37,112 nt of DNA from a virus (taxonomy: Duplodnaviria; Caudoviricetes): positions 1 to 37,112 of the IMG/VR virus record IMGVR_UViG_3300025296_002997; one strand, 5' to 3'. Positions 2,439-19,861 of this stretch are shown here, piece after piece; position 1 is the stretch's first letter; each line of letters starts with the position of its first letter. Below the pieces are notes generated by a model. It worked only from the letters and a program-made list of their open reading frames with translations. It searched no databases and had not been told where the DNA came from. The position numbers were made by a program, and so were the translations under genes.

Positions 2439-5101
2439 GCTTGAAACACCCAGCACTTCACGCTGCCGCCGTTGAGGCGGACGCGGGAGTTCACGGTGCG
2501 GTTGGAATCGATAAACTTGCGGGTCTTGCTGGTCTTCAAATAGCGCTTCAGCTCGCGCAGTTCGGGGGTGCGCAGCTTGTACTCGGCGCAGGTGCGCTCG
2601 AAGTCTTTGAGGTTCACGGCGATGTGCTCGCTGCCCTTGCCGTAGTGGTTCAGCTGAGGCTCATCGCGCAGGCCTTCGATGTAGTCGAAGGCTTCCCAAA
2701 ATTCGGCCACCATCGGGTGGTCGGCGTTGATGGATTGCTGCCGCTCGCGGGCCATCTGCTCCACCATGCCATTGGCCATATCGATGGTTTGCTGGTCGAA
2801 CAGCCCCAAGCCCTCCGGCCCCAGGCACTCCACCAACGCCATCAGCTGGCCGTGGCACTTGGCGATGCGCAGCACCTTGATATCCGGGTCGTCGGCCAAG
2901 CGGTCGGCGTAGTGGCGGGCGCGCTGGGTGATGGTGGCCAGCAGCGCGGCTTCCCGCTGGGCCACGGCCAGGGCGAATTGGCTCACGTGCTCTAGCTCGG
3001 TACGCTCCAGCGCCTCGGCCAGCGCTTTGGTGGTTTTGTTCTGGCCTTCCCGGGTGAAATGCAGGTGGCAGATACGGGTCTGAATGGCTTCGCCCGCCTG
3101 CACCGGGGCGTTCTGGCTAATCACGATGCTGCCGCGAAAGGGCGGCTCGTAGGTGTCGTTGCCTGAGTTCTTCACGCCACGGGCGCGGATCGAGCGGCCG
3201 TTAAAGGCGGTTTTCAGCTCATCCCAATCGAACTGCTTCTGCTTGGCACCGCCTTCCTGCTCGCGGTCGGATTCGATCAGCACCACCGGCAGGTTGCTCA
3301 CCTGGGCAAAGTTACGGCTGCGGGCGGGCATGGTGGCCTTGCTGGGGTCGAAGCCTTCATAGTCGCGCCGGCCGCACAGCTTCCAGAGGAACTCGATCAG
3401 CGTGGACTTACCCGCGCCCGCTTCGCCCACAATCTCCAAAAACGGGAAGCTGCCCATTTCGGCACGGATCTGCTCGGCCAGCAGGCTGCCCATCCAGTAC
3501 GCCAATGCCACCACGCCCCGGGAGCCAAACGCGCCCAAGAGCTGCTGTGTCCACTCGGTGCTGAACGCTTTACGGTCAGGGTTGATGTGCAGCGCTACGG
3601 ATTGGCTCAGGGTTTTCAACTGGCGGCGGGGGCCAAGCTCGAAAAAGTCCTCGCTGTTGATCGGCACCACCTTGCCACCGGCCACGGCAAGATCGCCGAA
3701 CACATAGGCGCCGTGCTCCTTGCTGTAGCCGATGAAGTCGATGGTCTCGACGGTTTTGATGTTGCCGATCTGGTCCTGCAGCAGGCTATCGAGCTGCTGG
3801 CTGGTACCTGTCCACACCGCGCCAGGCGCAATGCCCAGCAGGCGCTTTTTGTACTCAGAGGCAGAGGCCAACTGGCCGCCGCTGAAGGTGTTCTTGATCG
3901 GCGGGCGACCGTCGGGAAACTCCACGCGGTAGTAGTACCAGCTCTCATCGGTCACCGCGTTGGCCTGGTAATACAGCGCTGTGGGGAAACAGGTGCAGAT
4001 GCGCTTCACGCTGCCGGACTGCTCCAGCGCCGCATCGCGCAGGGCGGGGTCGATCTGCCGCTGGTCTTCGCCATCCAGCCCATCGGCGCGCAGGGCGCGG
4101 TCGAAGGCGTCCATGTCCAGCTTCCACCACCACAGCTGGCGTTTGAACTCGAACCAGAACTCCCGCTGTTCACGGCGCTTGTACATCAACAGCGCCTTCG
4201 CCATGGCCGTGGGGGCCAACAGCAGGTCGCCGTGGTAGCGGTAGGTTTCCTGGTGTTTCTCGGTTAGCTCGCCGCGCTGGTGGGCGTCGTTCCAGTCGTG
4301 GCCACCGTGGGGGATCTGCGCCGCGTGGCACTCCCAGCCTGCGGCCCGGGCGCGCTTCACATGCTTATGGGTGGCGTTATGGCCAGCGCGGTTGTTATCC
4401 AGCGCCCATACCAACGTAGGGCGGCTGGTGCCTGCCTTATGCGCCGCCTCGGAAAGGGCGTTCAACGCCTCGTCGGGGTAGTTGGCGCAGCTCATGGCGG
4501 AAACCGCCGCAATGCCGTGGTGGTAAAGGGCGATCGCATCGAAGATGCCTTCTACAATCCACACTTCCTCAGCCGCTACTAAGTCAGCGGCGGTGAGTGC
4601 AGGCGGGCACCACCACTGGCCTTTGTAGCGGCCAACGAAATTGGCCTTCTGCTTGCCGAAGCGCTCCGGGTTATCCAGCAGGCGCTCCCAGTAAGCGCCG
4701 CCGGGAAGCTGAAAGCGCACGGTGGCGGTGCCGCCTATCTCCGGCTTCCAGTAGCTCTCCTGGGTGTACCAGCCCTGAAGGCGGGAAAGCTCGAAGCCCC
4801 GGCCATCGCGCAGGTAGCCATCGGCCACCGGCGTGGTGGAAGTCGGTTTCTCGTTGGCTTTCGGGCTGTAGCGCTCGCTCCAGGATCGGAACAGATCCGG
4901 GAACAGCGCTTTGATGTGGATTTGCGCGCCACAGTTGTTTTCCCGCCCGCATTTCAGCATCCACGGCGCGTCGGTGTTGATGTACGCCTCGCGCTTACCG
5001 CACTCCGGGCAGCGCACCCGTTGCAGGTAGGGGCCGCGCTCAATCGCCTCAAAATCGCTGATTAAGCGCGTAACAATGTCCTGGCGCAGCGATGAATTCA
5101 C
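2435..5101 (-). CDS. Replication protein: Zn-finger + TOPRIM primase + P-loop helicase (P4 alpha-like domain order)
   Basis: CPECG..C....C, IVEGIFDAIA, ALDN, DWND, Walker A GEAGAGKS; GTG start at 5101 after AAGGAGG. Confidence 0.88.
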   Translation of the reverse strand: MNSSLRQDIVTRLISDFEAIERGPYLQRVRCPECGKREAYINTDAPWMLKCGRENNCGAQIHIKALFPDLFRSWSERYSPKANEKPTSTTPVADGYLRDGRGFELSRLQGWYTQESYWKPEIGGTATVRFQLPGGAYWERLLDNPERFGKQKANFVGRYKGQWWCPPALTAADLVAAEEVWIVEGIFDAIALYHHGIAAVSAMSCANYPDEALNALSEAAHKAGTSRPTLVWALDNNRAGHNATHKHVKRARAAGWECHAAQIPHGGHDWNDAHQRGELTEKHQETYRYHGDLLLAPTAMAKALLMYKRREQREFWFEFKRQLWWWKLDMDAFDRALRADGLDGEDQRQIDPALRDAALEQSGSVKRICTCFPTALYYQANAVTDESWYYYRVEFPDGRPPIKNTFSGGQLASASEYKKRLLGIAPGAVWTGTSQQLDSLLQDQIGNIKTVETIDFIGYSKEHGAYVFGDLAVAGGKVVPINSEDFFELGPRRQLKTLSQSVALHINPDRKAFSTEWTQQLLGAFGSRGVVALAYWMGSLLAEQIRAEMGSFPFLEIVGEAGAGKSTLIEFLWKLCGRRDYEGFDPSKATMPARSRNFAQVSNLPVVLIESDREQEGGAKQKQFDWDELKTAFNGRSIRARGVKNSGNDTYEPPFRGSIVISQNAPVQAGEAIQTRICHLHFTREGQNKTTKALAEALERTELEHVSQFALAVAQREAALLATITQRARHYADRLADDPDIKVLRIAKCHGQLMALVECLGPEGLGLFDQQTIDMANGMVEQMARERQQSINADHPMVAEFWEAFDYIEGLRDEPQLNHYGKGSEHIAVNLKDFERTCAEYKLRTPELRELKRYLKTSKTRKFIDSNRTVNSRVRLNGGSVKCWVFQA

Positions 5102-5262
5102 GCTCGCCTCCTTATTTAACAAATGGATGGGGCTGGGCTTGGGGCTAGATCACGGCACCGGCGGGGCCGTGGGTGCCCCCTTTCGGCCGGGCATAACACA
5201 CAGGCCGAAAGGGGCGTGGTGGCCGTGGGGGCCTTGGGTGATGGGCTGCTCTCTGCATTGTC

Positions 5263-5547
5263 TTAACCCTCATAACGTTCGTCGTTGGCGGCTGGGCGGG
5301 TAATGTCTAATTGCATCTGCTGGATCAGGCGAGGCGCGAACGGCAGATCCACCCGGGCGTTGGGGATATCGCTGGGGGTTAAAGTGTGCAGCACCTGAAA
5401 CCCCGCCTTGCCTCGAAAGCCGCACGCCACGTTGCGGCACTCCACTACCCCTTCGCGGTACACCGGCGTTAGCCCCTGGCTGTTGCGTACCCGCATGTTG
5501 TGGCCGCAATGGGGGCAGGGCATACGGTGCTTGGAAGCGGTCGACAT
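5263..5547 (-). CDS. ogr: Ogr/Delta-like zinc-finger late transcription activator
   Basis: CPHCG...R.S.......E...ECRNVACG; start 5547 overlaps the upstream TGA. Confidence 0.85.
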   Translation of the reverse strand: MSTASKHRMPCPHCGHNMRVRNSQGLTPVYREGVVECRNVACGFRGKAGFQVLHTLTPSDIPNARVDLPFAPRLIQQMQLDITRPAANDERYEG

Positions 5548-5747
5548 CAATGGTTTCTCCCTACCGGATAAAGGGCGCGGCCGCGGCCGGTGAGCCCTTG
5601 GGTGCCTTTGCGTAGCCGTCGCCGCAGTAGCCATTCGGCGGCGTCGTCCAGGCTGGTTAAATCCTGCTGTTCACATACCTGCTGCAGCGCGGCCTCTAGC
5701 TGGTCGTTCAGCGGAAGGCGTTCGCCGCGTGCCGGTTGGTCAGCCAT
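5547..5747 (-). CDS. Hypothetical phage protein (66 aa)
   Basis: Operonic ORF with GAGGT RBS, coupled to ogr. Confidence 0.65.
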   Translation of the reverse strand: MADQPARGERLPLNDQLEAALQQVCEQQDLTSLDDAAEWLLRRRLRKGTQGLTGRGRALYPVGRNH

Positions 5748-5785
5748 ACCTCAATGCTCCTTGAGGGCCTCAAAAAGCCCTGCCT

Positions 5786-5989
5786 TTACGACGCCTGCTG
5801 GGGCACAGTGCTAAGTGAGAGATCCGCAACGCCCAGCGTCTCTAGGGCTTCTTTCAGCACCAGTTGGCGCAGCAGCGATGCCCGCTCGATGCCGGTGTAA
5901 TCCACCAGCGCATCGATCAGTCGGGCCTCGTACTGATCCAGATTGAGAGCGGCGTAGCGGGTGCGCACACGTTTGGGGTCCTGGTACAT
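5786..5989 (-). CDS. Small phage DNA-binding-like protein (MYQDPKRVR...)
   Basis: AAGGA RBS; strand-helix-helix pattern like an RHH protein. Confidence 0.65.
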   Translation of the reverse strand: MYQDPKRVRTRYAALNLDQYEARLIDALVDYTGIERASLLRQLVLKEALETLGVADLSLSTVPQQAS

Positions 5990-6014
5990 GGCAAACATCC
6001 TTATGCAGGCAGGG

Positions 6015-6221
6015 TCATTCGGCATTCAGCGTGTCTTGGTCGTACTCGGCGATGCCGCGCAGCATGAGCATCCGCGCCGTGGCGGAGAGGGTGCGCATTT
6101 CCAGCTCGGCGATGCGCTTGAGTTCCTCCCGTTCGTCTTCGGTCACGTGGGCCATGATTGGGCAGTTGCAGCCCTTAGGGGCATAAATTGGCTTTGGGGC
6201 AATAGCGTTGGGCGTGGTCAT
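6015..6221 (-). CDS. Small RHH-like regulator (possible Cro/Cox analogue)
   Basis: IMAHVTEDEREELKRIAELEMRTLSATARMLMLRGI strand-helix-helix pattern; early-operon position. Confidence 0.6.
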   Translation of the reverse strand: MTTPNAIAPKPIYAPKGCNCPIMAHVTEDEREELKRIAELEMRTLSATARMLMLRGIAEYDQDTLNAE

Positions 6222-6276
6222 GGGTTAGGCTTCCCGAACGATGTGTTAGAGAGTGAAAGACTTAATCCGCAGCGCA

Positions 6277-6603
6277 TTAGCGCTCGTACAAGCGCACCAG
6301 CTTGCGCTGCAGGAAGTGCTCATCCATGTGGGTGCGCAGTTCGCACAAGGCGTCTTCCACCTGCTCAAACGGCGCGTTTTGGGCCAGCATCGTGGCAGCG
6401 AGCTGGCTCACCGCCTGGGCGGTGGTGCGCTCTTCCAGCGCTTCGAGATCGGCCAGTGGGTTGGGCTTCTCCGTGCCCTGGCGCAGCGCCGTTTCAATGG
6501 TGCGGCGGGTACGTGGCGAACAGCGGTCCAGGTTCACTTCCACCCCGCGAAACAGCACGGTGGGGGAAGGCGGCAAGATGATCGTGGCAATAATGGTGAC
6601 CAT
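6277..6603 (-). CDS. Hypothetical protein, first gene of the leftward early operon
   Basis: AAAGGAA RBS before ATG 6603; divergent from the repressor. Confidence 0.6.
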   Translation of the reverse strand: MVTIIATIILPPSPTVLFRGVEVNLDRCSPRTRRTIETALRQGTEKPNPLADLEALEERTTAQAVSQLAATMLAQNAPFEQVEDALCELRTHMDEHFLQRKLVRLYER

Positions 6604-6652
6604 GGCAGTGGTTCCTTTTGCATGTGTATCGAAGTGAAAGACATAAACAGAA

Positions 6653-6671
6653 TGGTACCGAATGGTTTCCA
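6653..6671. promoter_or_regulatory. Putative repressor operator in the divergent switch region
   Basis: TGGTACCGAATGGTTTCCA; 18/19-identical inverted copy at 6882-6900. Confidence 0.55.
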
Positions 6672-6693
6672 TGTCAAGAGTTGTGAGGTCTAA

Positions 6694-7359
6694 ATGGTTT
6701 CATTGGGTGAAAGGCTACGCGAGGAAAGGGAGCGGCTGGGGATGTCACAAACCCAGTTTGGTGACCTTGCCCAAGTAACTAAGAAGACGCAGATGCTCTA
6801 TGAAGGGGACCAAAGAAGCCCAAAAGCCGACTATCTGACGGCAATTGCTTCTCAGGGAGTAGACGTTCAATACGTGCTCACTGGAAACCGTTCGGTACCA
6901 GAGTCCCAGCCTTTAGGCTTGCCGGTAACCGAACCTGGGCCAGAGCTTTCGCCGGTGCTGATGTACGACATTGAAGCGGCAGCGGGCGCTGGCCGAAGCT
7001 TTGAGGGCGAGCCGGTAAAAACCACACTGTACTTTTCCAGCTCAGAGCTAGCGGAGCAGGGACTCGACCCTGCGCAAGTGGTGGGCGTTAAGGTGCGAGG
7101 CGACTCAATGCTTGGGACGCTAGACGATGGCGACTGGGTATTGGTAGATCGCAGCAACCGCGATCCGAAGCAGGAAGGTGTGTTTCTACTGCTAGTAAGT
7201 GGTGAGCGGAGAATTAAACGAGTACAGCGCCTGGCGGGCGGGGCGCTGTATTTGATCAGTGACAATGACCACTATCAGCCTGAGATGATCAAACCGCAGG
7301 ATATGCACGATGTGGAGATTCTGGGGCGGTGTGAGATTCGGATTGGGCGGGTGGTGTGA
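6694..7359 (+). CDS. CI-like repressor, XRE HTH + S24 autopeptidase
   Basis: LGERLREERERLGMSQ HTH; AAG cleavage site; GDSM catalytic Ser; IKRV catalytic Lys. Confidence 0.92.
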   Translation: MVSLGERLREERERLGMSQTQFGDLAQVTKKTQMLYEGDQRSPKADYLTAIASQGVDVQYVLTGNRSVPESQPLGLPVTEPGPELSPVLMYDIEAAAGAGRSFEGEPVKTTLYFSSSELAEQGLDPAQVVGVKVRGDSMLGTLDDGDWVLVDRSNRDPKQEGVFLLLVSGERRIKRVQRLAGGALYLISDNDHYQPEMIKPQDMHDVEILGRCEIRIGRVV

Positions 7360-7534
7360 GTGTAAAACCATAAATAAGAAATCCTGGTTTTGTGCTTTTA
7401 GGCTAATTAATGAAGTTTTTAGTTGGGCTTTAAAAGCTCTTTATTTTTTGGTAGTGGTGGTTGTAGATTTGTAGTTAATTTTTTCTATCGATTTTGAGTT
7501 TTTGATTAAATAAAATGGGTCGGAGTTTTTTCTG

Positions 7535-8644
7535 ATGAGTGAAAAGAGCGAAATCAAAATGATAGATGTAGAAATGCTACATCTTGATTTTAAAAATCCC
7601 AGGCTTCCCTCGAATCTGACAAGGACTGAAAGAGCTATATTAAAGTATATAGCGAGCACAACAAGTCTTGAGGATCTGATGGAGGCCATAGCAAAGAATG
7701 GCTTTTTTCCAGGTGAGCCTTTAGTGGCTGTTGAGGAGGATGGGAAACTAATTGTAGTTGAGGGTAATAGGCGTTTATCAGCTGTTAAGCTATTGAATGA
7801 TCCAGAACAAATAGAGAATCCAGGACGGCTGATACGTTCTATTTCAGATGCTGCAGAAAAGATATCAGAGCTGCCAGTTGTCGTGAAAAGCTCTCGTGCC
7901 GAAGTTCTGCCATATTTAGGTTTCAGGCATATCACTGGTGTGAAACAATGGGAGCCATTATCAAAAGCTAGATATATGAGGGAGCTTTTTACTCTAACCT
8001 CCCCTGAAGATGAACCAAGTGAAAGGTACAAACAAGTTGCTCGTATGATCGGCTCGCGTAGCAATCATATCAAGCGTAGCTTGGATGCTTTGGCAGTTTA
8101 TGAAAATATTGAAAGAGAAGATTTTTATGATATACCAGGGCTTGACGAAGAAAGTATAAAATTTGCAGTTCTATCGACAGCTTTAGCAGATGAAAGAATA
8201 GCTGCTTTTGTTGGGACTCAGAAGAAAGAAGGTAATGGTGAGTCTAATCATACACATCCTATAATTGATCCTAAATCTTTGTCTTCAACAAGTATCAAGG
8301 ATTTAACTAATTGGTTGTATAGGAAAAACGAAAGTGGAGTTACTAGAGTAGGTGAGTCCAGGAATTTAAAACGTTTAGGGTCTGTTCTTGAATCAGAGAA
8401 AGCTAAAAAAGCATTCATGAGTGGTAGTTCTTTAGAGTATGCCTTCCGGCTCTCGAAAGGATCTGAAGAAGAGTTTATGGAATATCTTTATACTGCTCAG
8501 GCTGCGCTGGCTCAAGCTGCAAGTCTAGTTGCTAATATAGACTTTTCTGAACAGGCATTAGAAGTTTCAAAAGAAATAAGAAGTAGTGTTAGCTTGATAG
8601 GGAAAACTCTGTCTTCAAAAAGAGTAGATGATGATGACTTTTGA
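7535..8644 (+). CDS. ParB/Srx-like N-terminal domain protein with following HTH
   Basis: L.LD.KNPR, EPLVAV....IVVEGNRRLSAVKLL (GxRR NTP motif), YKQVARMIGSRSNHIKRSL HTH-like; AT-rich. Confidence 0.85.
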   Translation: MSEKSEIKMIDVEMLHLDFKNPRLPSNLTRTERAILKYIASTTSLEDLMEAIAKNGFFPGEPLVAVEEDGKLIVVEGNRRLSAVKLLNDPEQIENPGRLIRSISDAAEKISELPVVVKSSRAEVLPYLGFRHITGVKQWEPLSKARYMRELFTLTSPEDEPSERYKQVARMIGSRSNHIKRSLDALAVYENIEREDFYDIPGLDEESIKFAVLSTALADERIAAFVGTQKKEGNGESNHTHPIIDPKSLSSTSIKDLTNWLYRKNESGVTRVGESRNLKRLGSVLESEKAKKAFMSGSSLEYAFRLSKGSEEEFMEYLYTAQAALAQAASLVANIDFSEQALEVSKEIRSSVSLIGKTLSSKRVDDDDF

Positions 8645-9626
8645 TATAGGTGTCTTACATCCGACTACCCCCCATCTTTTTGCAGACTTGATTGAGTTCC
8701 TTGCTGTGTTCGATGCAGGTGGTAAAGGGGAGCTACATAAAAATGATGTCATCAATATAGTGAATGGTGTTCCTCTATCTGATGATGAAGTGGATGATGA
8801 GCAAGATTTTCAAGATTTAGATACTGTTTCTGATGCTGGAAAAAATGATATCAAAGAAAGCAGAGTTGAGGATGTTTGGACTCACTTAGAGTATAGGCAG
8901 TCTGTATTAGGTGAGAGCTACCCATTCAAAATAGAAGGTGATTTAATAATACTTAATTCAGATTGGCAGGATCCAAGACATAAGGTTTATCGGTTTTTGC
9001 TTGCCACATCTCGATTACGTTCGTTTAGAGAAGGTGTAAGAAATAAGTGGTCGAGAGCATTTGCAGAAGTTTCAGCATTTGCAATGAGATCCTTATTGCC
9101 GAATCATGCAGTAGTTAAAGTTTTTGATGCTAACTCTGAAGATCGCAAAAATTTTTATGGTAGTGACTGTAGAGAAGCACTTGTTAAGTTAGGGAAGCAA
9201 TTATGTGTTTATAAAGTACATGAAGACGAGATTATGAAAAGGAGTTCTTCTGGGGATGGGGGAATTGACTTAGTGGGTGTTCTTTCTTTTGATGATCAAG
9301 CTCATGGCTCACATATTGTTTTTGGTCAGTGTGGCGCACAGGAGAAAAATTGGCCCGATAAGAGGCTTGAGGCACACCCTTTACGTTTAAACGCTTATTT
9401 TCATATTGTTCATGATGTAATCACTACAATGTTCACTCCAGTTTTGTTTCGCTCATCAACGGGGGAGTGGGAGAAAAATATTAGCGTTACAGGGGTAGTT
9501 GTTCTAGACCGTATTCGAATTCTGAATCTAATAGAAAAGGGCAACGCCTTTGAGGACATTGCTCAGCAGGCCTATTTTCAAGCTTTCGAACATGAGTTTG
9601 GGAATTACTCAATTCCTCTTCGTTAA
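8628..9626 (+). CDS. Hypothetical protein with a PD-(D/E)XK restriction-endonuclease-like C-terminal motif
   Basis: AFAEVS...SGDGGIDLVG.......IVFGQC resembles the Mrr-like (E)..GDGGID..Q core; overlaps the ParB-like gene by 17 nt. Confidence 0.65.
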   Translation: MMMTFDIGVLHPTTPHLFADLIEFLAVFDAGGKGELHKNDVINIVNGVPLSDDEVDDEQDFQDLDTVSDAGKNDIKESRVEDVWTHLEYRQSVLGESYPFKIEGDLIILNSDWQDPRHKVYRFLLATSRLRSFREGVRNKWSRAFAEVSAFAMRSLLPNHAVVKVFDANSEDRKNFYGSDCREALVKLGKQLCVYKVHEDEIMKRSSSGDGGIDLVGVLSFDDQAHGSHIVFGQCGAQEKNWPDKRLEAHPLRLNAYFHIVHDVITTMFTPVLFRSSTGEWEKNISVTGVVVLDRIRILNLIEKGNAFEDIAQQAYFQAFEHEFGNYSIPLR

Positions 9627-10568
9627 TCAAAACCATATGTTAGGCAATGCACGTGCTACTGCCTCAAAAAGGGGCGGTGGCACCGCATTACCTACTACTT
9701 TGTAGCGCATGCTCATGCTGCCCGACTTATGTTCTGGAAACGCAAGATCTTCAAAACCTTGTAGCTTGGCTGCCTCGCGATAGCTAAAACGGCGTGCAGG
9801 TCCATCGTGTGTAAAACGCCACACGTTGTGCTCAAGCTTCTCCAATGGTGGGCTCATCGGGTGCAGTGGCATGTGGCGCGGGTTGGCGACAATCGTTTTC
9901 GATTGTTCATTCCAGCCGTTCCGGCGGTTTCTGGAGAGGTAGTACCAGTGAAAATCGAGATCGTAAAACTCACCTTCCGGCCACTCAGGCATACCGCCAA
10001 TGGCGTCTTCTATGGTGGCTTTAGCTGGCCCGCCTAAGATGCCATGGGTCGGCTGGGGGAACTCATACTCAATCCCAAAGTCGTCACGAATCCCGACGAT
10101 AAAAATTCTCTTTCGCTCCTGGGCAACGCCAAAATCTGCTGAATTAAGCACTTGGAATGAAACGTTATAGCCAGCCTCAGTGAACACACGGAGCTGATCC
10201 TGTAGCAGGTGGGCGTAATTTTTACGCACCATGCCAGAGACATTTTCAACGATGAACGCTTTTGGCTTGATCTGGTTCAGGGCACGGGCAAATTCGAGAT
10301 AAAGGGTGTTGATTTGGCGACCAGCATCACGCACGCCGCCTTGGCTAAACCCTTGGCATGGGTAGCAGCCCACTAGTAACTCAGCATCAGGGAAATGTTC
10401 TATTCCACTTATGCTTCCAAGGCGGTAGTCAGTCTCTGGATGGTTGTGCTCATAAACTGCCTGCGCATACGCCAACACATCGTTGGCCATCAGCACATCA
10501 AAGCCAGCATTGATGATGCCAGCGTCGGAGCCCCCGCAACCTGAGAAAAGTGACACTGCTGTTGGCAT
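9627..10568 (-). CDS. DNA (cytosine-5)-methyltransferase
   Basis: Motif I LFSGCGG, IV YPCQGFS, VI ENV, VIII QERKRIF, IX RRFSYREAAKLQGF, X YKVVGNAVPP. Confidence 0.95.
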   Translation of the reverse strand: MPTAVSLFSGCGGSDAGIINAGFDVLMANDVLAYAQAVYEHNHPETDYRLGSISGIEHFPDAELLVGCYPCQGFSQGGVRDAGRQINTLYLEFARALNQIKPKAFIVENVSGMVRKNYAHLLQDQLRVFTEAGYNVSFQVLNSADFGVAQERKRIFIVGIRDDFGIEYEFPQPTHGILGGPAKATIEDAIGGMPEWPEGEFYDLDFHWYYLSRNRRNGWNEQSKTIVANPRHMPLHPMSPPLEKLEHNVWRFTHDGPARRFSYREAAKLQGFEDLAFPEHKSGSMSMRYKVVGNAVPPPLFEAVARALPNIWF

Positions 10569-10664
10569 GACGTTTTCCTAAACCTTAGCTCCCTCACGGG
10601 ATGGTGATATTCGAGAGGGTGGGATTCTAACGCCCCCTGGTGACGTTGGCACACCCCCGGTGCG

Positions 10665-10704
10665 TTATTTCTTTATTTCGTTATTTCGTCATAGCGTTAT
10701 TTCA
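10665..10704. repeat. 8-bp-period direct repeats (TTATTTCN)
   Basis: TTATTTC at 10665, 10673, 10681 and 10697, with a degenerate unit at 10689. Confidence 0.7.
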
Positions 10705-10711
10705 CGCCATT

Positions 10712-11015
10712 TTAGTGCCTCAATGATGACGTGGCCAGCGCTCTTTTTGCCGCCCCCTCATCCGTATACGCCTTCATCAGCTCATCCCAATGCGTCGTAT
10801 AGCGCGGGCTACGGTTCGCGCAGCGTAGGTGCCAGGGGGCGCACATGATGGGCGGGCGTGCCCATTTTCACGCCCAGGGCTTTGAGCTCGTTGGAGCGGG
10901 CGACGATGCAGCCGTCGTTATTCGACATGATGCCCACCGCCCGGCGGTTCAGCTTGGGATTGAACACGCGCTCGCAGCTCACGTAGAAGTTGTTGCAGTC
11001 CACTAACCCGATCAT
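10712..11015 (-). pseudogene. umuC: umuC (Y-family Pol V subunit) with large internal deletion and frameshift
   Basis: N-terminus LVDCNNFYVSCERVF..SNNDGC..ARS joined near 10840 to an out-of-frame C-terminus WHLRCANRSPRYTTHWDEL (stop 10714..10712). Confidence 0.88.
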
Positions 11016-11041
11016 GTCGCCTCCTTAACCCTTGTTAAATG

Positions 11042-11057
11042 CTGTTCGTTTATACAG
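11042..11057 (-). promoter_or_regulatory. LexA (SOS) box of the umuC remnant
   Basis: CTGT-TCGTTTAT-ACAG; minus-strand TTGCCT-N17-TAATAC promoter adjoins it. Confidence 0.8.
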
Positions 11058-11131
11058 TATTAGGCATTAGGGAGGCGACAGGCAAACGCTAATATACGTC
11101 GCTGAATATGGAGCTAGCACAGGGCAACAGC

Positions 11132-11482
11132 ATGCGAGTGACCTACTTGGGGCCTGCCGTGGTGGGGGTGGAGCACCCGGCGGTAGCGGAGATGGACCGG
11201 CGAAAATTTCCGCCGACCTGTTTTCTGGTGGAGATCAGCGAAGAGGCGCACCCCGGTGGGCCATGGATGGAAGGCGACGTACTGGTGGTGGACGAAGCGC
11301 GCTCGTATGGCCACGCGGATCTGGTAGTGGCGGAGGTAGAGGGCGAGTACCGATTGTTCAAAACCCAGCGCGTCGGCAGCCGCTGCCGCCTGTTGCCGCC
11401 CACGGGTGGGGAAGGGTGCTTCATCACCGCGAAGCAGTTTCGTGGGGTGGTGGTCAGGCAGGCGCGGTGTTGGGCGTTGTAG
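11132..11482 (+). CDS. UmuD/S24-peptidase-like protein with degenerate active site
   Basis: PPTCFLVEI....EGDVLVVDE....HADLVVAEVEGEY..FK...RGVV matches the UmuD fold pattern but has no GxSM serine; start may be 11108. Confidence 0.65.
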   Translation: MRVTYLGPAVVGVEHPAVAEMDRRKFPPTCFLVEISEEAHPGGPWMEGDVLVVDEARSYGHADLVVAEVEGEYRLFKTQRVGSRCRLLPPTGGEGCFITAKQFRGVVVRQARCWAL

Positions 11483-11620
11483 GTGGATTAAATTTTTAAG
11501 ATAAGATCTTCCTTTACGGTATCGCTTTTGATATCTTGATTTTGGTATCGAAAATGATACCGATAGGGCTGCGGGTTTGTCCCGCAATAATTATTCACTG
11601 TTTCAACGTGGAGAAAATAA

Positions 11621-12106
11621 ATGCCATTGCTCATCCGTCCATCCGGTGATTTGGAAGAAAAGCTCGACCATTTTTCAAAGAAAATGGGCCAGTCCAAAAA
11701 TTCAATAGTCTCAGAAGCTCTAAGTGACTATTTCGCAAAGCACTCTGCCTCTCAGGTTCTTCTGGAACAAGAGGTCAAAGAGAGCGCATTTGATCGTATG
11801 CTTCAAGCGAGGGAGCAAGATCCTAAGCGCTATCAGGAAGCGACAGAGGTGTTAGATTGGATTCAGCGCCGCCTATTATGGACTGCGACTGAAAATCCAT
11901 CTGGTAAGATAAGAGAAGCGTTATACGGGATCAATGAAGTAGAAAGCTTCATATATCAAGAAGGTAGTGATGACTCGCTGCTACTTGTGGTTAACCATCT
12001 TTCTAATCCACCTCCGCGAGGTACGGCTCGTTACCTGCGCTATTTGATCCCATTTCAAGATTGGAAGAATAATATGAGAATCGTTTCTCATGAGCCCAAT
12101 TATTGA
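11621..12106 (+). CDS. CopG/RHH-like N-terminal domain protein, unknown C-terminus
   Basis: LLIRPSGDLEEKLDHFSKKMGQSKNSIVSEALSDYF; GGAGA RBS; AT-rich. Confidence 0.7.
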   Translation: MPLLIRPSGDLEEKLDHFSKKMGQSKNSIVSEALSDYFAKHSASQVLLEQEVKESAFDRMLQAREQDPKRYQEATEVLDWIQRRLLWTATENPSGKIREALYGINEVESFIYQEGSDDSLLLVVNHLSNPPPRGTARYLRYLIPFQDWKNNMRIVSHEPNY

Positions 12107-12139
12107 AAATAATCTGATTTTAAGATTTTTTATGGAAAG

Positions 12140-13129
12140 CTAGAGAGTGATTATTTCTAGCTTTATACGGGTGTTAAACCCCCCATCATTCAGCGAGTGC
12201 GTGACCTCGCTCACCAGCCAGGCCGTGGCGTCGATCTGAGGCTTGAAGCCCGCGAGCGTGAGCGGAGTTTCGGGCAGTAGGTCGGCGCGACCCAATGCCA
12301 ACGTTAGCTCAAATTCTGCCAGGCCTCGTTGGATGCGCTGCCATTCGGCGCGGGCGGCGGCTAGGGCGTCGTCTTCGGTGGCGAAGGTGGGGCGTAGCTG
12401 TTTGGCGTTCTCTTCCGTGCCTGCCAGAACGGTGTGGCGCTCTGCGCCTCGTGTGTCGTTCCAGTAGGCTTTCACACCGCTGTAGGCGTCGCGGTCGGTC
12501 ACGCTGTAACGGTGCTGGTCGCCGTCGCGGCGGGTGAGGGTGATGGCGGGCATGGCGCGGCCGCTGGCCGTTAGCCCTTGGCCGGCCACGGTGAACAGCA
12601 TGCGCCCGGCTTTGATGGCGGCGATCGCATCGTAACGCTCGCCCAGGCGGGTGAGAAAATTCAGGTCGGATTCGTCGGTCTGGTCGATATGGCCAATGCG
12701 GATGCCGTTGAGCGCGGCGGCCACCACTGGCTCCAGGCGGTTGCGGCCTGCGATGGTGGTGACGATCTCGCCCAGCGTGACATCGTGCCAGCCCTGGGTG
12801 CGCTTGCCGGGCAGTTGGCCGCGCATATCCGCCGAGCGGGCGCGGATGGTGAGCTGGTCCGGCGTGCCCGTGTGCTGCACTTCATCCACCGTAAAGCGGC
12901 CCTTATCCACCAGCCCTTCCTCTTGCCAGCCAAAGGCCACCTGCAGCTCTGCCCCGCGAGGGGGAATGGCGAGCTGGCCGTCGTGGTCGGCCAGGGTAAT
13001 GTCCAGCTGGTCGGCTTCCAGCCCGCGCTGCTCGCGCAGGGTGAGGCTGATCAGGCGGCCGTTGATGCGCGGGGTGATGTCGGTGCCATCCAGCGTGATG
13101 CGATAGCTGGGCTTGGGGTAAGCGTTCAT
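12140..13129 (-). CDS. gpD: P2 gpD-like late control/baseplate hub protein
   Basis: RLISLTL...RGLEADQL.I.L.D; QTDESDLNFLTRL; synteny. Confidence 0.92.
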   Translation of the reverse strand: MNAYPKPSYRITLDGTDITPRINGRLISLTLREQRGLEADQLDITLADHDGQLAIPPRGAELQVAFGWQEEGLVDKGRFTVDEVQHTGTPDQLTIRARSADMRGQLPGKRTQGWHDVTLGEIVTTIAGRNRLEPVVAAALNGIRIGHIDQTDESDLNFLTRLGERYDAIAAIKAGRMLFTVAGQGLTASGRAMPAITLTRRDGDQHRYSVTDRDAYSGVKAYWNDTRGAERHTVLAGTEENAKQLRPTFATEDDALAAARAEWQRIQRGLAEFELTLALGRADLLPETPLTLAGFKPQIDATAWLVSEVTHSLNDGGFNTRIKLEIITL

Positions 13130-13569
13130 ACATAGCCTCCTGCTAAACGCGCCACGGCGGGCAGTGCTAGGCGGCCAATCAGGTCGGTGCGCTCATCATC
13201 GACGTGTTCTAGCGTGAGGTTGAACTCGATTTTCTCTGCCGCGCCGTCGCGGAAAAAGTGCGAGCTGGTCTCTTCCACGCGGGTCACCACCCAAAGGCCG
13301 TACTGGCGGCCGGTGCCTTCGACCAGCGGCCAGGCGTTGCCCTGGTCGGCCATCTCGCGGATCTCATCCAGGCTAAAGCGGCCGCCGGTGAATGTGGGCA
13401 GCAGGGTGCCGCTTAAAGTGATGGTATCCGCGCCTGGGCCTGCGAACTGGTAAGCGGGCCGCTGCCCCACGCGGGATTGGCTGGGGTGCCGCCATTCGGT
13501 GATGCGCTTTAATTCCTGATAGGGCACGCTACGGGTCTCAAATACGAACATGCCAAGGGCCATTAACAT
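13126..13569 (-). CDS. gpU: P2 gpU-like tail protein
   Basis: MLMALGMFVF...VPYQ....WRHPSQSRVG.RPAYQF.GPG. Confidence 0.9.
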   Translation of the reverse strand: MLMALGMFVFETRSVPYQELKRITEWRHPSQSRVGQRPAYQFAGPGADTITLSGTLLPTFTGGRFSLDEIREMADQGNAWPLVEGTGRQYGLWVVTRVEETSSHFFRDGAAEKIEFNLTLEHVDDERTDLIGRLALPAVARLAGGYV

Positions 13570-14203
13570 GATGTTTAGTCTCCTGATTAAGTTGAATGAC
13601 AAGATCAATAGCAGAGTTCGAGTGCTTTCAGAGAAAGCTAAGTTGAAAAGGAGCAGCAAGAAGGAAGATGGCCATGGTATTTTTGCAGCTAAGTTAATAG
13701 TGGTTTTCTTATCACAGTATCTTATATCAATATTTATATTGGCTATGTATTTTGCAGCGCTTAACCAGGGAGACGGTTTGAGTGATGCAGCTGTTTATTC
13801 AGCACTTAAAAGTGTTGGTGCTAAAGATTTTCTATACGTGGCTATAGGTGTTGCTGCGATTTCATTAGTAGATGGTGTCAATAAAGTGGCTTTGGCTCTG
13901 TTAATCATGTATGCAGGCGTCCTAATCGTTTTGATGCAGATTGTCATGTGGATTCCAGAAGACCTTGAATTCTCGGCGCAACACTCAGTTATACAAAGGA
14001 CGATTTCTGTCTCACTCCTCACGATTTTTGTATGCATGTTCTGGATACCGGTGAATGCAGTCATTGTGTTGGTTTCACGTATAGCTAATCTAGGTCACGC
14101 ATCGAAGAACGAATCCGCGCAGCTTTCTCACGCTCCCTCCGATCTAGCTCACGACCTACGATACTCGCGATCTCGTGCGCGTCGCTCCCGGGCGCAGCGT
14201 TAA
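13568..14203 (+). CDS. Putative multi-pass (about 4 TM) membrane protein moron, antisense to the tail operon
   Basis: AT-rich insert between tape measure and gpU; only the + frame is long and carries several hydrophobic segments; start uncertain. Confidence 0.55.
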   Translation: MMFSLLIKLNDKINSRVRVLSEKAKLKRSSKKEDGHGIFAAKLIVVFLSQYLISIFILAMYFAALNQGDGLSDAAVYSALKSVGAKDFLYVAIGVAAISLVDGVNKVALALLIMYAGVLIVLMQIVMWIPEDLEFSAQHSVIQRTISVSLLTIFVCMFWIPVNAVIVLVSRIANLGHASKNESAQLSHAPSDLAHDLRYSRSRARRSRAQR

Positions 14204-19048: not shown

Positions 19049-19861
19049 ATGAGGAATTGGCTGGTTGGTGTGTGGGTAGGTGTTATTGCCAGTATTTTTG
19101 TAGGGGCTTATGTCTTAGTTTTCGGCAGTAGGCCTACGTCGACTAACCCTGAAGATTGGGCGCATTTTGCGACTTATTTATCAGGTACTGTTGGTGTAAC
19201 AGCGGTACTAGGAACTCTATATGCTGTTGTACGTACTCTGGGACAGCAGCAGGCTTTGATAGATAGCCAGGATGAGTTGTTGAAGAATCAAGTTGAACAA
19301 TTAAGTGCTTTAAAAGATAAAAATAAAGAAGATGCTAAGGTCAGAAAAGTTGACCTTGCTCACAAGTATGCGATTGAAATATTTCCTATCATGCTGAAAG
19401 ATGCCTTGACTGATATGGAAAGAAGTATTTTGTTTGAAGCAGATGGTGTGTACCAAAATGCCATGGATAATCTAAGGTCAGATAATTTTTATCCTGAAAA
19501 TTTTAAGGTGGGTGATTTTTTTAAAGGTGGAGCGGTAATTTTGTTAGAACTGGCTGAAGAAAGAGATGATGACACTGAGCTTTTAGTCAAAAGAATTATG
19601 GGTCAACCTTTATATTTGATTAATTTTTCTGCTATGCAGATTAGTGTGGATAAAGATTTGTTTTACTATTTTGAGTCAGTGATGAGTGATTACTGGCGAG
19701 TTTTAGAATGTTGCGCTGCCTACTATCAAGGTTTAGATGAAAATCCATCTGACATTGATGCTTTTGGGCTTTTAAGGTTAAAAAGAAAACCTAGGTCTTT
19801 AGAGTTGCATGCAAAAAATTGGTATGAGCTTGGACGCCTTTACAGAAATAAAAAATGTTAG
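19049..19861 (+). CDS. Membrane-anchored moron protein (2 TM + coiled coil + soluble domain)
   Basis: AT-rich and opposite to the late genes; DWAHFATYLSGTVG between TMs; Q-rich coil; extended -10 TGCTATAAA at 19017-19025. Confidence 0.8.
   Translation: MRNWLVGVWVGVIASIFVGAYVLVFGSRPTSTNPEDWAHFATYLSGTVGVTAVLGTLYAVVRTLGQQQALIDSQDELLKNQVEQLSALKDKNKEDAKVRKVDLAHKYAIEIFPIMLKDALTDMERSILFEADGVYQNAMDNLRSDNFYPENFKVGDFFKGGAVILLELAEERDDDTELLVKRIMGQPLYLINFSAMQISVDKDLFYYFESVMSDYWRVLECCAAYYQGLDENPSDIDAFGLLRLKRKPRSLELHAKNWYELGRLYRNKKC

Follow-up and report, generated by a model that had tools for sequence, protein, structure and literature searches.

A ParB-fold protein, a predicted PD-(D/E)XK nuclease and a C5-cytosine methyltransferase in a P2-like prophage: a likely restriction-modification-like defence with an unusual effector architecture

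Introduction

What is a gene of the ParB family doing next to a DNA methyltransferase in a temperate phage? The question is raised by the viral sequence IMGVR_UViG_3300025296_002997 (Duplodnaviria; Caudoviricetes), whose full 37,112 nucleotides (nt) were analysed here and are called the window. The window is a P2-like prophage, in which integrase, primase, a CI-like repressor, gpD, gpU, tape measure, sheath, terminase and portal were identified. Between the repressor (6694-7359) on one side and gpD (12140-13129) on the other lies a cassette of three genes, named A, B and M below; among named homologues of A and B, the nearest come from Halomonas. A first-pass annotation had read the cassette as a restriction-modification (RM)-like system, in which a ParB-like clamp and a nuclease restrict DNA and 5-methylcytosine (5mC) marks self. 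Here, we put the probability at roughly 55% that A-B-M is an RM-like anti-phage system with an exchangeable two-subunit restriction arm gated by a nucleoside triphosphate (NTP). The reading as RM-like defence is made because of the modelled folds, the intact motifs, the coupling of A to B, the link to marking genes, the setting in a hotspot and the exchange of A-B between phages.

Gene organisation

The features of the locus are as follows (aa, amino acids; HTH, helix-turn-helix).

7535..8644, plus strand: gene A, 369 aa; ParB/Srx fold at about 5-136, HTH at about 140-195, helical middle and two long C-terminal helices at 310-361
8628..9626, plus strand: gene B, 332 aa; probable N-terminal winged helix and PD-(D/E)XK (Mrr/MspJI-like) domain
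9627..10568, minus strand: gene M, 313 aa; C5-cytosine methyltransferase with an M.HaeIII-type recognition region
7356..9632, no strand: exchangeable segment of AT-rich leader, A and B, replaced in the sister prophage L124
6694..7359, plus strand: CI-like repressor (HTH and S24), the left boundary of the cargo slot
10624..10652, minus strand: Sigma70-like site 56 nt upstream of the M start, a consensus match only, its count not above shuffles

All three open reading frames (ORFs) are intact. A and B have a GC content of 0.39, against 0.52 for M and 0.58 for the whole window, and they overlap by 17 nt, A ending at 8644 and the first ATG of B lying at 8628; since B has three consecutive ATGs, its true start may be 3-6 nt later. 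M runs head-on into the pair, the TAA of B (9624-9626) abutting the TGA of M (9627-9629, minus strand). Scans for promoters, terminators and repeats gave nothing specific at the A-B/M junction and no terminator-like hairpin at the junction itself, the hairpins found on the minus strand (9686-9674 and 9562-9541, consensus matches only) lying to either side. Among 53 loci with the same M subfamily (not dereplicated), 50 are convergent with A-B and three have M upstream in the same direction; the stop-to-stop gap is -4 to +12 nt in 43 of the 50. The clear conclusion is that this abutting, convergent layout is not chance.

A ParA-type KGGxGK[ST] motif is absent from all frames of the window and of 93 homologous loci; the cassette thus lacks the ParA that stands beside ParB in a ParABS partition locus. 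In all of this the first-pass annotation was accurate, having described an AT-rich overlapping pair right after the repressor, a methyltransferase gene whose stop abuts that of B at 9626/9627, and a ParB-like gene with no ParA. The motifs that it quoted (GNRR, SGDGGIDLVG, GQCG, YPCQ and the recognition region) are likewise all in the translations.

Gene A: a ParB/Srx-fold protein

The structure model of A has a predicted local distance difference test score (pLDDT) of 89. Foldseek relates it to KorB, Noc and ParB (E values from 4e-6 for KorB to 1e-5), and VIA to PadC (Z 9.5, root-mean-square deviation (rmsd) 2.4, 96 residues aligned) and KorB (Z 9.4), with the HTH at about 140-195 in the structure comparison. 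The proposal of a ParB-like protein with an HTH is thus borne out. By sequence, TIGR00180 matches residues 40-88 (E 3.6e-5, below cut-off), a PDB search gives a weak ParB match, and a Pfam search at E 0.1 gave nothing. In PADLOC, PD-Lambda-5_A matches over residues 7-151 only and PDC-M38A over 42-336. The residues D18, N21, R23, E61, E76-G-N-R-R80, H132 and W139 are found in every covering row of a 63-row alignment, and those of the nucleotide site (NPR and GNRR motifs) are invariant across all types of partner gene.

Fold and GxxR box together place A in the ParB/Srx superfamily, and no P-loop was matched in the Pfam, Foldseek or VIA comparisons. From the model, A is predicted to be a nucleotide switch and DNA binder. 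By analogy with the ParB family it may act as an NTP-gated clamp, although we are somewhat doubtful that it is a true sliding clamp. It is worth adding that, in the available part of bioRxiv 2025.10.10.680097, nucleotide preference is described as not predictable from sequence, and 17 of 28 purified ParB-fold proteins bound no nucleotide.

Gene B: a predicted PD-(D/E)XK nuclease

B has no Pfam or NCBIfam family and only a best PADLOC match of E 0.03; a PDB sequence search found no relative, and a single-sequence viral scan found nothing. It falls in PHROG 3984, where function is unassigned. The family is nevertheless large, with 1,718 clusters at 50% identity (E<=0.001). As neither Pfam nor NCBIfam nor PADLOC models it, what is probably a common defence module escapes the tools now in use.

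The structure model (pLDDT 89) matches MspJI (Foldseek E 3e-4; VIA Z 6.4, rmsd 4.1, 141 aligned), and the ten best VIA rows are all restriction or nicking enzymes, at middling Z scores of 5.2-6.4. The nearest named structures in the Atlas are Mrr_cat proteins, under the Atlas naming bar, and the N-terminal part (8-135) weakly resembles winged helices (Z 3.6-4.3). A restriction-endonuclease-like second gene had been proposed, and the comparisons with Foldseek and VIA agree on a PD-(D/E)XK core, at middling scores. On the basis of this model, B is a predicted endonuclease with a PD-(D/E)XK domain behind a probable winged helix.

The key residues of B are D210, D214, Q234, W242 and K245. Of the canonical E...D...(D/E/Q)xK set, D214 and Q234 are kept, the lysine is at 245 and not at 236, and the motif-I position is alanine. 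A conservation alignment was made of 137 rows, comprising the query and those 136 of 146 new matches that are at least 280 aa long. D214, Q234 and W242 are invariant in all 137, and K245 is present in 132; all five rows that lack it have a lysine at the canonical QxK position, K236, and are among the seven rows with a canonical QCK. The complementarity of K245 and K236 has a Fisher p of 6e-8, which is overstated, those rows being probably one clade. The first-pass annotation had noted QCG in place of QxK and offered either a variant active site or dependence on a partner; the alignment favours the former. The QCG thus appears to be a family-wide variant and not decay, with the relocated K245 likely replacing the QxK lysine. 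No fused, longer form of B was found among 7,996 candidates of 640-2000 aa, which is a weak test, and in the loci examined A and B are always separate genes.

Gene M: the methyltransferase and its target

M is a full C5-methylase (PF00145, E 5e-63, above cut-off), with the catalytic PC, the ENV motif and the recognition region present. It matches the DruM2 profile at E 1e-107, and its nearest relative among solved structures is M.HaeIII (1dct; E 7e-49 over residues 4-308). The two share SRNR, and differ in the second recognition loop (VANPRH versus QASGRQ), in keeping with the original description of an M.HaeIII-type recognition region with different residues. The region is conserved in 31 loci.

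Depletion of GGNCC and GGWCC was considered as a sign of the M target, these sites standing at 0.61 and 0.51 of the codon-shuffled expectation in 34 cassettes (103,860 nt). Controls behaved alike, with 0.57 and 0.43 in flanking genes and 0.68 and 0.62 in A-B genes without this methylase, and the candidates were rejected; GGCC stood at 0.90 in the same test. The earlier statement that the target cannot be predicted therefore holds. For O145, the accessible portion of a methylome study (PMC3893438) reports adenine marks only. M is the predicted self mark.

Co-occurrence of A-B with marking genes

Loci encoding B were gathered from phage and plasmid records, from genome, viral and metagenome scans seeded with a near-clade alignment, and from genome samples (3 of 400, 7 of 301 and 1 of 301 positive, each including its centre). 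This gave at least 91 B proteins of at least 250 aa, of which 72 were left at 90% identity, in a sample biased to the near clade. A lies directly upstream in 70 of the 72 loci, the other two having less than 140 nt of flank. Once six short-flank loci are set aside, marking genes adjoin A-B in 60 of 66, and the three-gene survey that had been suggested as a check thus supports the association. The partners, labelled by hand, are a C5-methylase of the same subfamily as M in 42 loci (one of them partial, and L018 taking its label from L100, another copy in the same genome), another C5-methylase in eight, an N4/N6 methylase in three, a Dam-type methylase in three (one possibly belonging to an adjacent PD-lambda-5, and that of L057 possibly to another RM system) and Dnd genes in four. 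The remaining six are one locus beside a type I RM system (L005) and five with no marking gene (L004, L009, L010, L011 and L072).

In a quick tree of the 72 B proteins, which has long branches, partners of one type tend to group together, and the usual C5 partner turns up in several clades. The A-B-M layout occurs also in Wphi, vB_EcoM-12474III and vB_PaeM-D14A. Methylase and predicted nuclease are here separate, linked genes at one locus, as in type II RM.

A-B also lies inside or beside Dnd/Pbe phosphorothioate operons (L086, 822-7584; L095, 918-8004; L074, 173-7227). The order in L086 is dndB-A-B-dndC-dndD-dndE, a second layout is dndC-dndD-HerA-like-A-B, and L020 too pairs A-B with Dnd. 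In the distant loci L096 and L098 the partner is a PD-lambda-5_B-like Dam-type methylase, and in L099 A-B and a complete PD-lambda-5 stand side by side. Three of the loci with no marking gene (L010, L011 and L072) form a clade in which A-B stands alone amid housekeeping genes, in genomes of methanotroph type, two of which have a HaeIII-like methylase at another place. It follows that A-B is not specific to 5mC, and that the pair may not kill a cell which has no mark.

Exchange of A-B at a fixed methylase

The window and L124 align in blastn at 95.0% identity up to position 7355 and at 95.8% from 9633, with no match between. The amino-acid identity of the two is 98.7% for M, 34% for A and 27% for B, the A-B of L124 belonging to the other main clade with its motifs intact. 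Wphi and the O145/12474 type show the same pattern (M 98%, A 32%, B 21%), again with the break at the M stop. The distances of A and B correlate closely over 31 loci (Mantel r 0.88). As an operon, A-B behaves like an effector module open to exchange, the phages keeping the mark and swapping the cutter. The swapping probably occurs by recombination in the conserved flanks, and possibly serves to escape phage inhibitors.

The prophage hotspot and the E. coli carriers

Searching with gpD gave 37 sister loci, of which 22 reach the repressor, and the slot between the two genes measures 1.1-7.4 kb, with varying cargo. PADLOC matches at E<=1e-8 were found in 11 of 17 scanned sister loci (45 ORFs), and include Lamassu, Pycsar, two type II RM systems, PD-T7-4, RexA, PDC-M53 and PDC-M11A. 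In this Halomonas-type P2-like group, the slot from repressor to gpD (6694-12140 in the window; L119-L155) is thus a hotspot for defence genes.

The trio is also found in 140 of 5426 complete E. coli genomes, in two types (104 and 36), at the P2 old/tin hotspot. Breaks fall in B (IS5 insertions and one split gene), and the A query is interrupted only once, by an IS2 that lies before the annotated start of A. M is in one piece in all 60 rows listed of the 140, there being 140 places for 140 records. In many of these genomes the trio persists within decayed P2 remnants with truncated portal and gpA (L116, L117 and L118), and it can stay whole where those two genes are broken. In three studies, contigs from RNA libraries extend over the E. 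coli-type cassette and break off close to its flanks (on L033: X10, 3868-8796; X12, 4011-8339; X14, 4309-8545), those of a fourth being patchy throughout. The runs were picked for holding this stretch and uncovered flanks do not prove silence, so the contigs are a weak hint that the cassette is expressed in lysogens. E. coli W carries the trio, and is described as restriction-minus in the available text of PMC3032704.

Proposed mechanism and alternatives

In the mechanism that we propose, M would mark the host DNA and the prophage's own DNA. A would bind an NTP, dimerise through its C-terminal helices and engage DNA at unmarked sites, where it would recruit or activate B; B would then cut using D214, Q234 and the relocated K245, and methylation by M would block the action of the pair. 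That A-B is a defence effector is very probable, and M is probably its functional partner; that cutting falls on unmarked DNA and is prevented by the mark is a view we hold by a modest balance. A prediction of the A-B complex (score 0.13, mark 0.32) gave no answer and is counted neither way. A broader idea can be put forward tentatively: A-B may be a plug-in engine, a ParB-type clamp with a separate PD-(D/E)XK nuclease, that is wired to 5mC, N4/N6 or phosphorothioate marks and swapped as a move in the arms race.

Several observations weigh against an RM-like reading. The five loci with no marking gene, and L005, keep all motifs of A and B with no cognate marker nearby; in five such draft genomes, which are incomplete assemblies, no methylase of the same subfamily was found elsewhere (best 40% identity), and two of them hold HaeIII-like methylases. 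Such lone loci speak against A-B depending strictly on M. The distances of M follow those of A and of B only loosely (Mantel r 0.25 and 0.39, 31 loci), and near-identical methylases accompany A-B pairs of 21-34% identity whose HTH helices differ, so that very different proteins would have to read one site. Either the two A-B clades recognise one mark, or the tie between A-B and M is looser than classical RM would have it. The site depletion gave nothing specific from which an M target could be derived. The structure scores of B are middling (Z under 8, template modelling (TM) score about 0.3), and its motif-I position is A146, where 74% of distant homologues have glutamate. The pattern of breakage in E. 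coli is only suggestive, as the genomes look largely clonal and joined pieces can hide insertions. The original proposal of an RM-like system with a 5mC self mark is accordingly supported in part, by co-occurrence, folds and hotspot, and weakened in its tie to 5mC by the N4/N6, Dam-type and Dnd partners and the five markerless loci.

The lone loci with intact motifs, and equally the pairing with Dnd (L086, L095, L074 and L020), would be explained if the mark activates A-B instead of blocking it, as for SspE or DndI. A would then sense the self mark, NTP turnover would license B to nick or cut the DNA of the invader, and the pair would be idle without a mark. SspE shares the ParB fold with A (6jiv, Z 3.8), and the accessible part of PMC13251355 describes it as coupling mark recognition to hydrolysis of guanosine triphosphate and nuclease licensing. 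Neither A nor B matched GmrSD/DUF262 or HNH, however, and the breaks of E. coli in B and not in M fit a protective mark slightly better; we give this alternative a minor but real weight. A type IV-like role, in which A-B attacks foreign modified DNA (for example of hydroxymethylcytosine phages) and M is a shield from host enzymes and a recombination arm, seems to us unlikely. It would suit the closest folds to B, which are modification-dependent (MspJI, AspBHI and Mrr), and the loose linkage of M, with clean swapping at its stop. A prophage of E. coli W reportedly restricted lambda and T2/T4 in work of the 1960s; W has several prophages, of which the one with the Wphi cassette may be that concerned. 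Yet distant B clades, in two gene orders, keep one and the same methylase subfamily as the partner of A-B, unrelated marking systems adjoin most other A-B loci, and neither Pfam nor VIA gave an SRA/PUA reader domain for A or B.

The ParB fold of A also invites two further explanations. A might be the guard of an abortive infection (Abi) system, sensing a change in the nucleotide pool or the loss of the mark and triggering B to degrade host DNA. The available text on PD-lambda-5, which has a related ParB domain, reads it as compact RM+Abi (PMC9519451), and that of PMC10853773 proposes ParB-family proteins as nucleotide sensors or effectors. We regard a guard as improbable here, as nothing points to a phage trigger and a constant marking partner more simply means direct discrimination of self from non-self. 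Still less credible, in spite of the resemblance of A to ParB, KorB and Noc, is a partition or regulatory ParB with an inactive partner, since ParA motifs are missing from the window and the 93 loci, the nuclease-type residues of B are invariant and the setting is a hotspot. RM-like defence by A-B-M thus remains the reading we prefer.

Other features of the locus and the slot

Beyond M, the window has a divergent umuC fragment (68 aa) and umuD-like gene at 10809-11482. umuC is full length (429-462 aa) in the sister loci L132, L134, L135, L145, L149, L150 and L151, so the insertion of cargo removed its 3' part in the window. A CTGT-N8-ACAG motif, which we take to be LexA-box-like, lies at 11042-11057 in this region, and an 8-bp unit is present in four to five copies at 10663-10703, between the M start and the umuC fragment. 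A 19-bp inverted pair, 95% complementary, has one arm upstream of the repressor gene (6653-6671) and one inside it (6882-6900), and may be operators. A second cargo gene beside gpD (11621-12106, 161 aa) has an N-terminal ribbon-helix-helix-like part (Arc/RelB-like, weak) and a C-terminus with no match. Among the tail genes there are cargo-like plus-strand ORFs of no confident family at 19049-19861 (270 aa, a 37% GC patch) and 13550-14203 (217 aa).

The sister slots also hold cargo with no PADLOC match, for example L144 9943-12429, L134 13475-15173, L151 12224-15456 and L130 10655-11638. In L121 (11318-14137) the same slot has an N4/N6 methylase with a DpdB-like ParB-fold gene and a 294-aa gene, a parallel cassette of methylase and ParB fold.

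Comparison with known systems

PADLOC gave no full match of the trio to a named system, and the literature search, which lay outside most subscription papers and REBASE, found no description naming it. There is no trio description in the available parts of PMC12373910, PMC12839542 and PMC10853773 or of section 7 of the Rousset bioRxiv text; PDC-M38 is not mentioned in the available part of the Payne 2024 bioRxiv text, and 'ParB' was not found in that of DefensePredictor. The first-pass annotation could not match the system to a name and left room for a prior description. The former stands; as for the latter, the arrangement is already listed, unnamed, in Table S5A of Rousset et al. (2022, PMC9122126), where the accessible supplement gives a homologous P2-hotspot trio as 'hypothetical' and 'DNA_methylase'. 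Accessions of Wphi (orf98-orf96-mth) and of the O145 cassette appear there, in that part of the supplement with no name, mechanism or test. The trio is thus likely an RM-like defence with an unusual effector architecture, widespread and unnamed, its arrangement already listed and its function predicted. To this the window adds a second hotspot, behind the repressor as in vB_PaeM-D14A, where the arrangement of Rousset et al. is next to cos, and a direct swap of A-B between sister phages at a fixed methylase. The pair of window and L124, with the same methylase and effectors of about 30% identity, lends itself naturally to testing how the cutter is coupled to self-recognition, and whether swapping evades phage inhibitors.

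The closest known system is PD-lambda-5. It has a related ParB-like N-terminal domain (A residues 7-151, E 5e-23), and likewise a methyltransferase partner and a place in prophage cargo; its authors, in the accessible text, read the system as compact RM+Abi (Vassallo et al., 2022). The match covers about 145 of the 369 residues of A, against PD-lambda-5_A profiles of 428-592 positions, and so falls short in length. PD-lambda-5_B is of Dam/D12 type, whereas M is a C5-methylase for which PD-lambda-5_B is outside the 25 best of 63 PADLOC matches, and in the trio the effector is encoded apart, as a PD-(D/E)XK protein for which PD-lambda-5 gave no match. Druantia type II shares with M, and with M.HaeIII, the methylase family of DruM, but M alone matched a Druantia profile among the seven window proteins scanned, with no DruE, DruF or DruG for A or B.

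Type II RM systems with an NTPase helper (LlaJI, BsuMI, NgoAVII/CglI) and McrBC are alike in combining a C5-methylase with a restriction arm that has several subunits and depends on a nucleotide. The NTPases of these systems are motors of the AAA+ or helicase kind, and A differs from these in its ParB/Srx fold and in having no P-loop match. SspE, DndI and GmrSD likewise couple a ParB/DUF262-fold NTPase to a nuclease, and SspE and DndI work with a self mark, according to the available parts of PMC13251355 and PMC11662687. These are single chains with HNH, whereas the trio has two chains and a PD-(D/E)XK fold, and Pfam gave no GmrSD_N or GmrSD_C match at E 0.1. If A is a true NTP switch, the clamp chemistry of ParB would extend from segregation and gene control to restriction, and A-B would be the first restriction enzyme in which a ParB-style NTP switch acts on a separate nuclease subunit.

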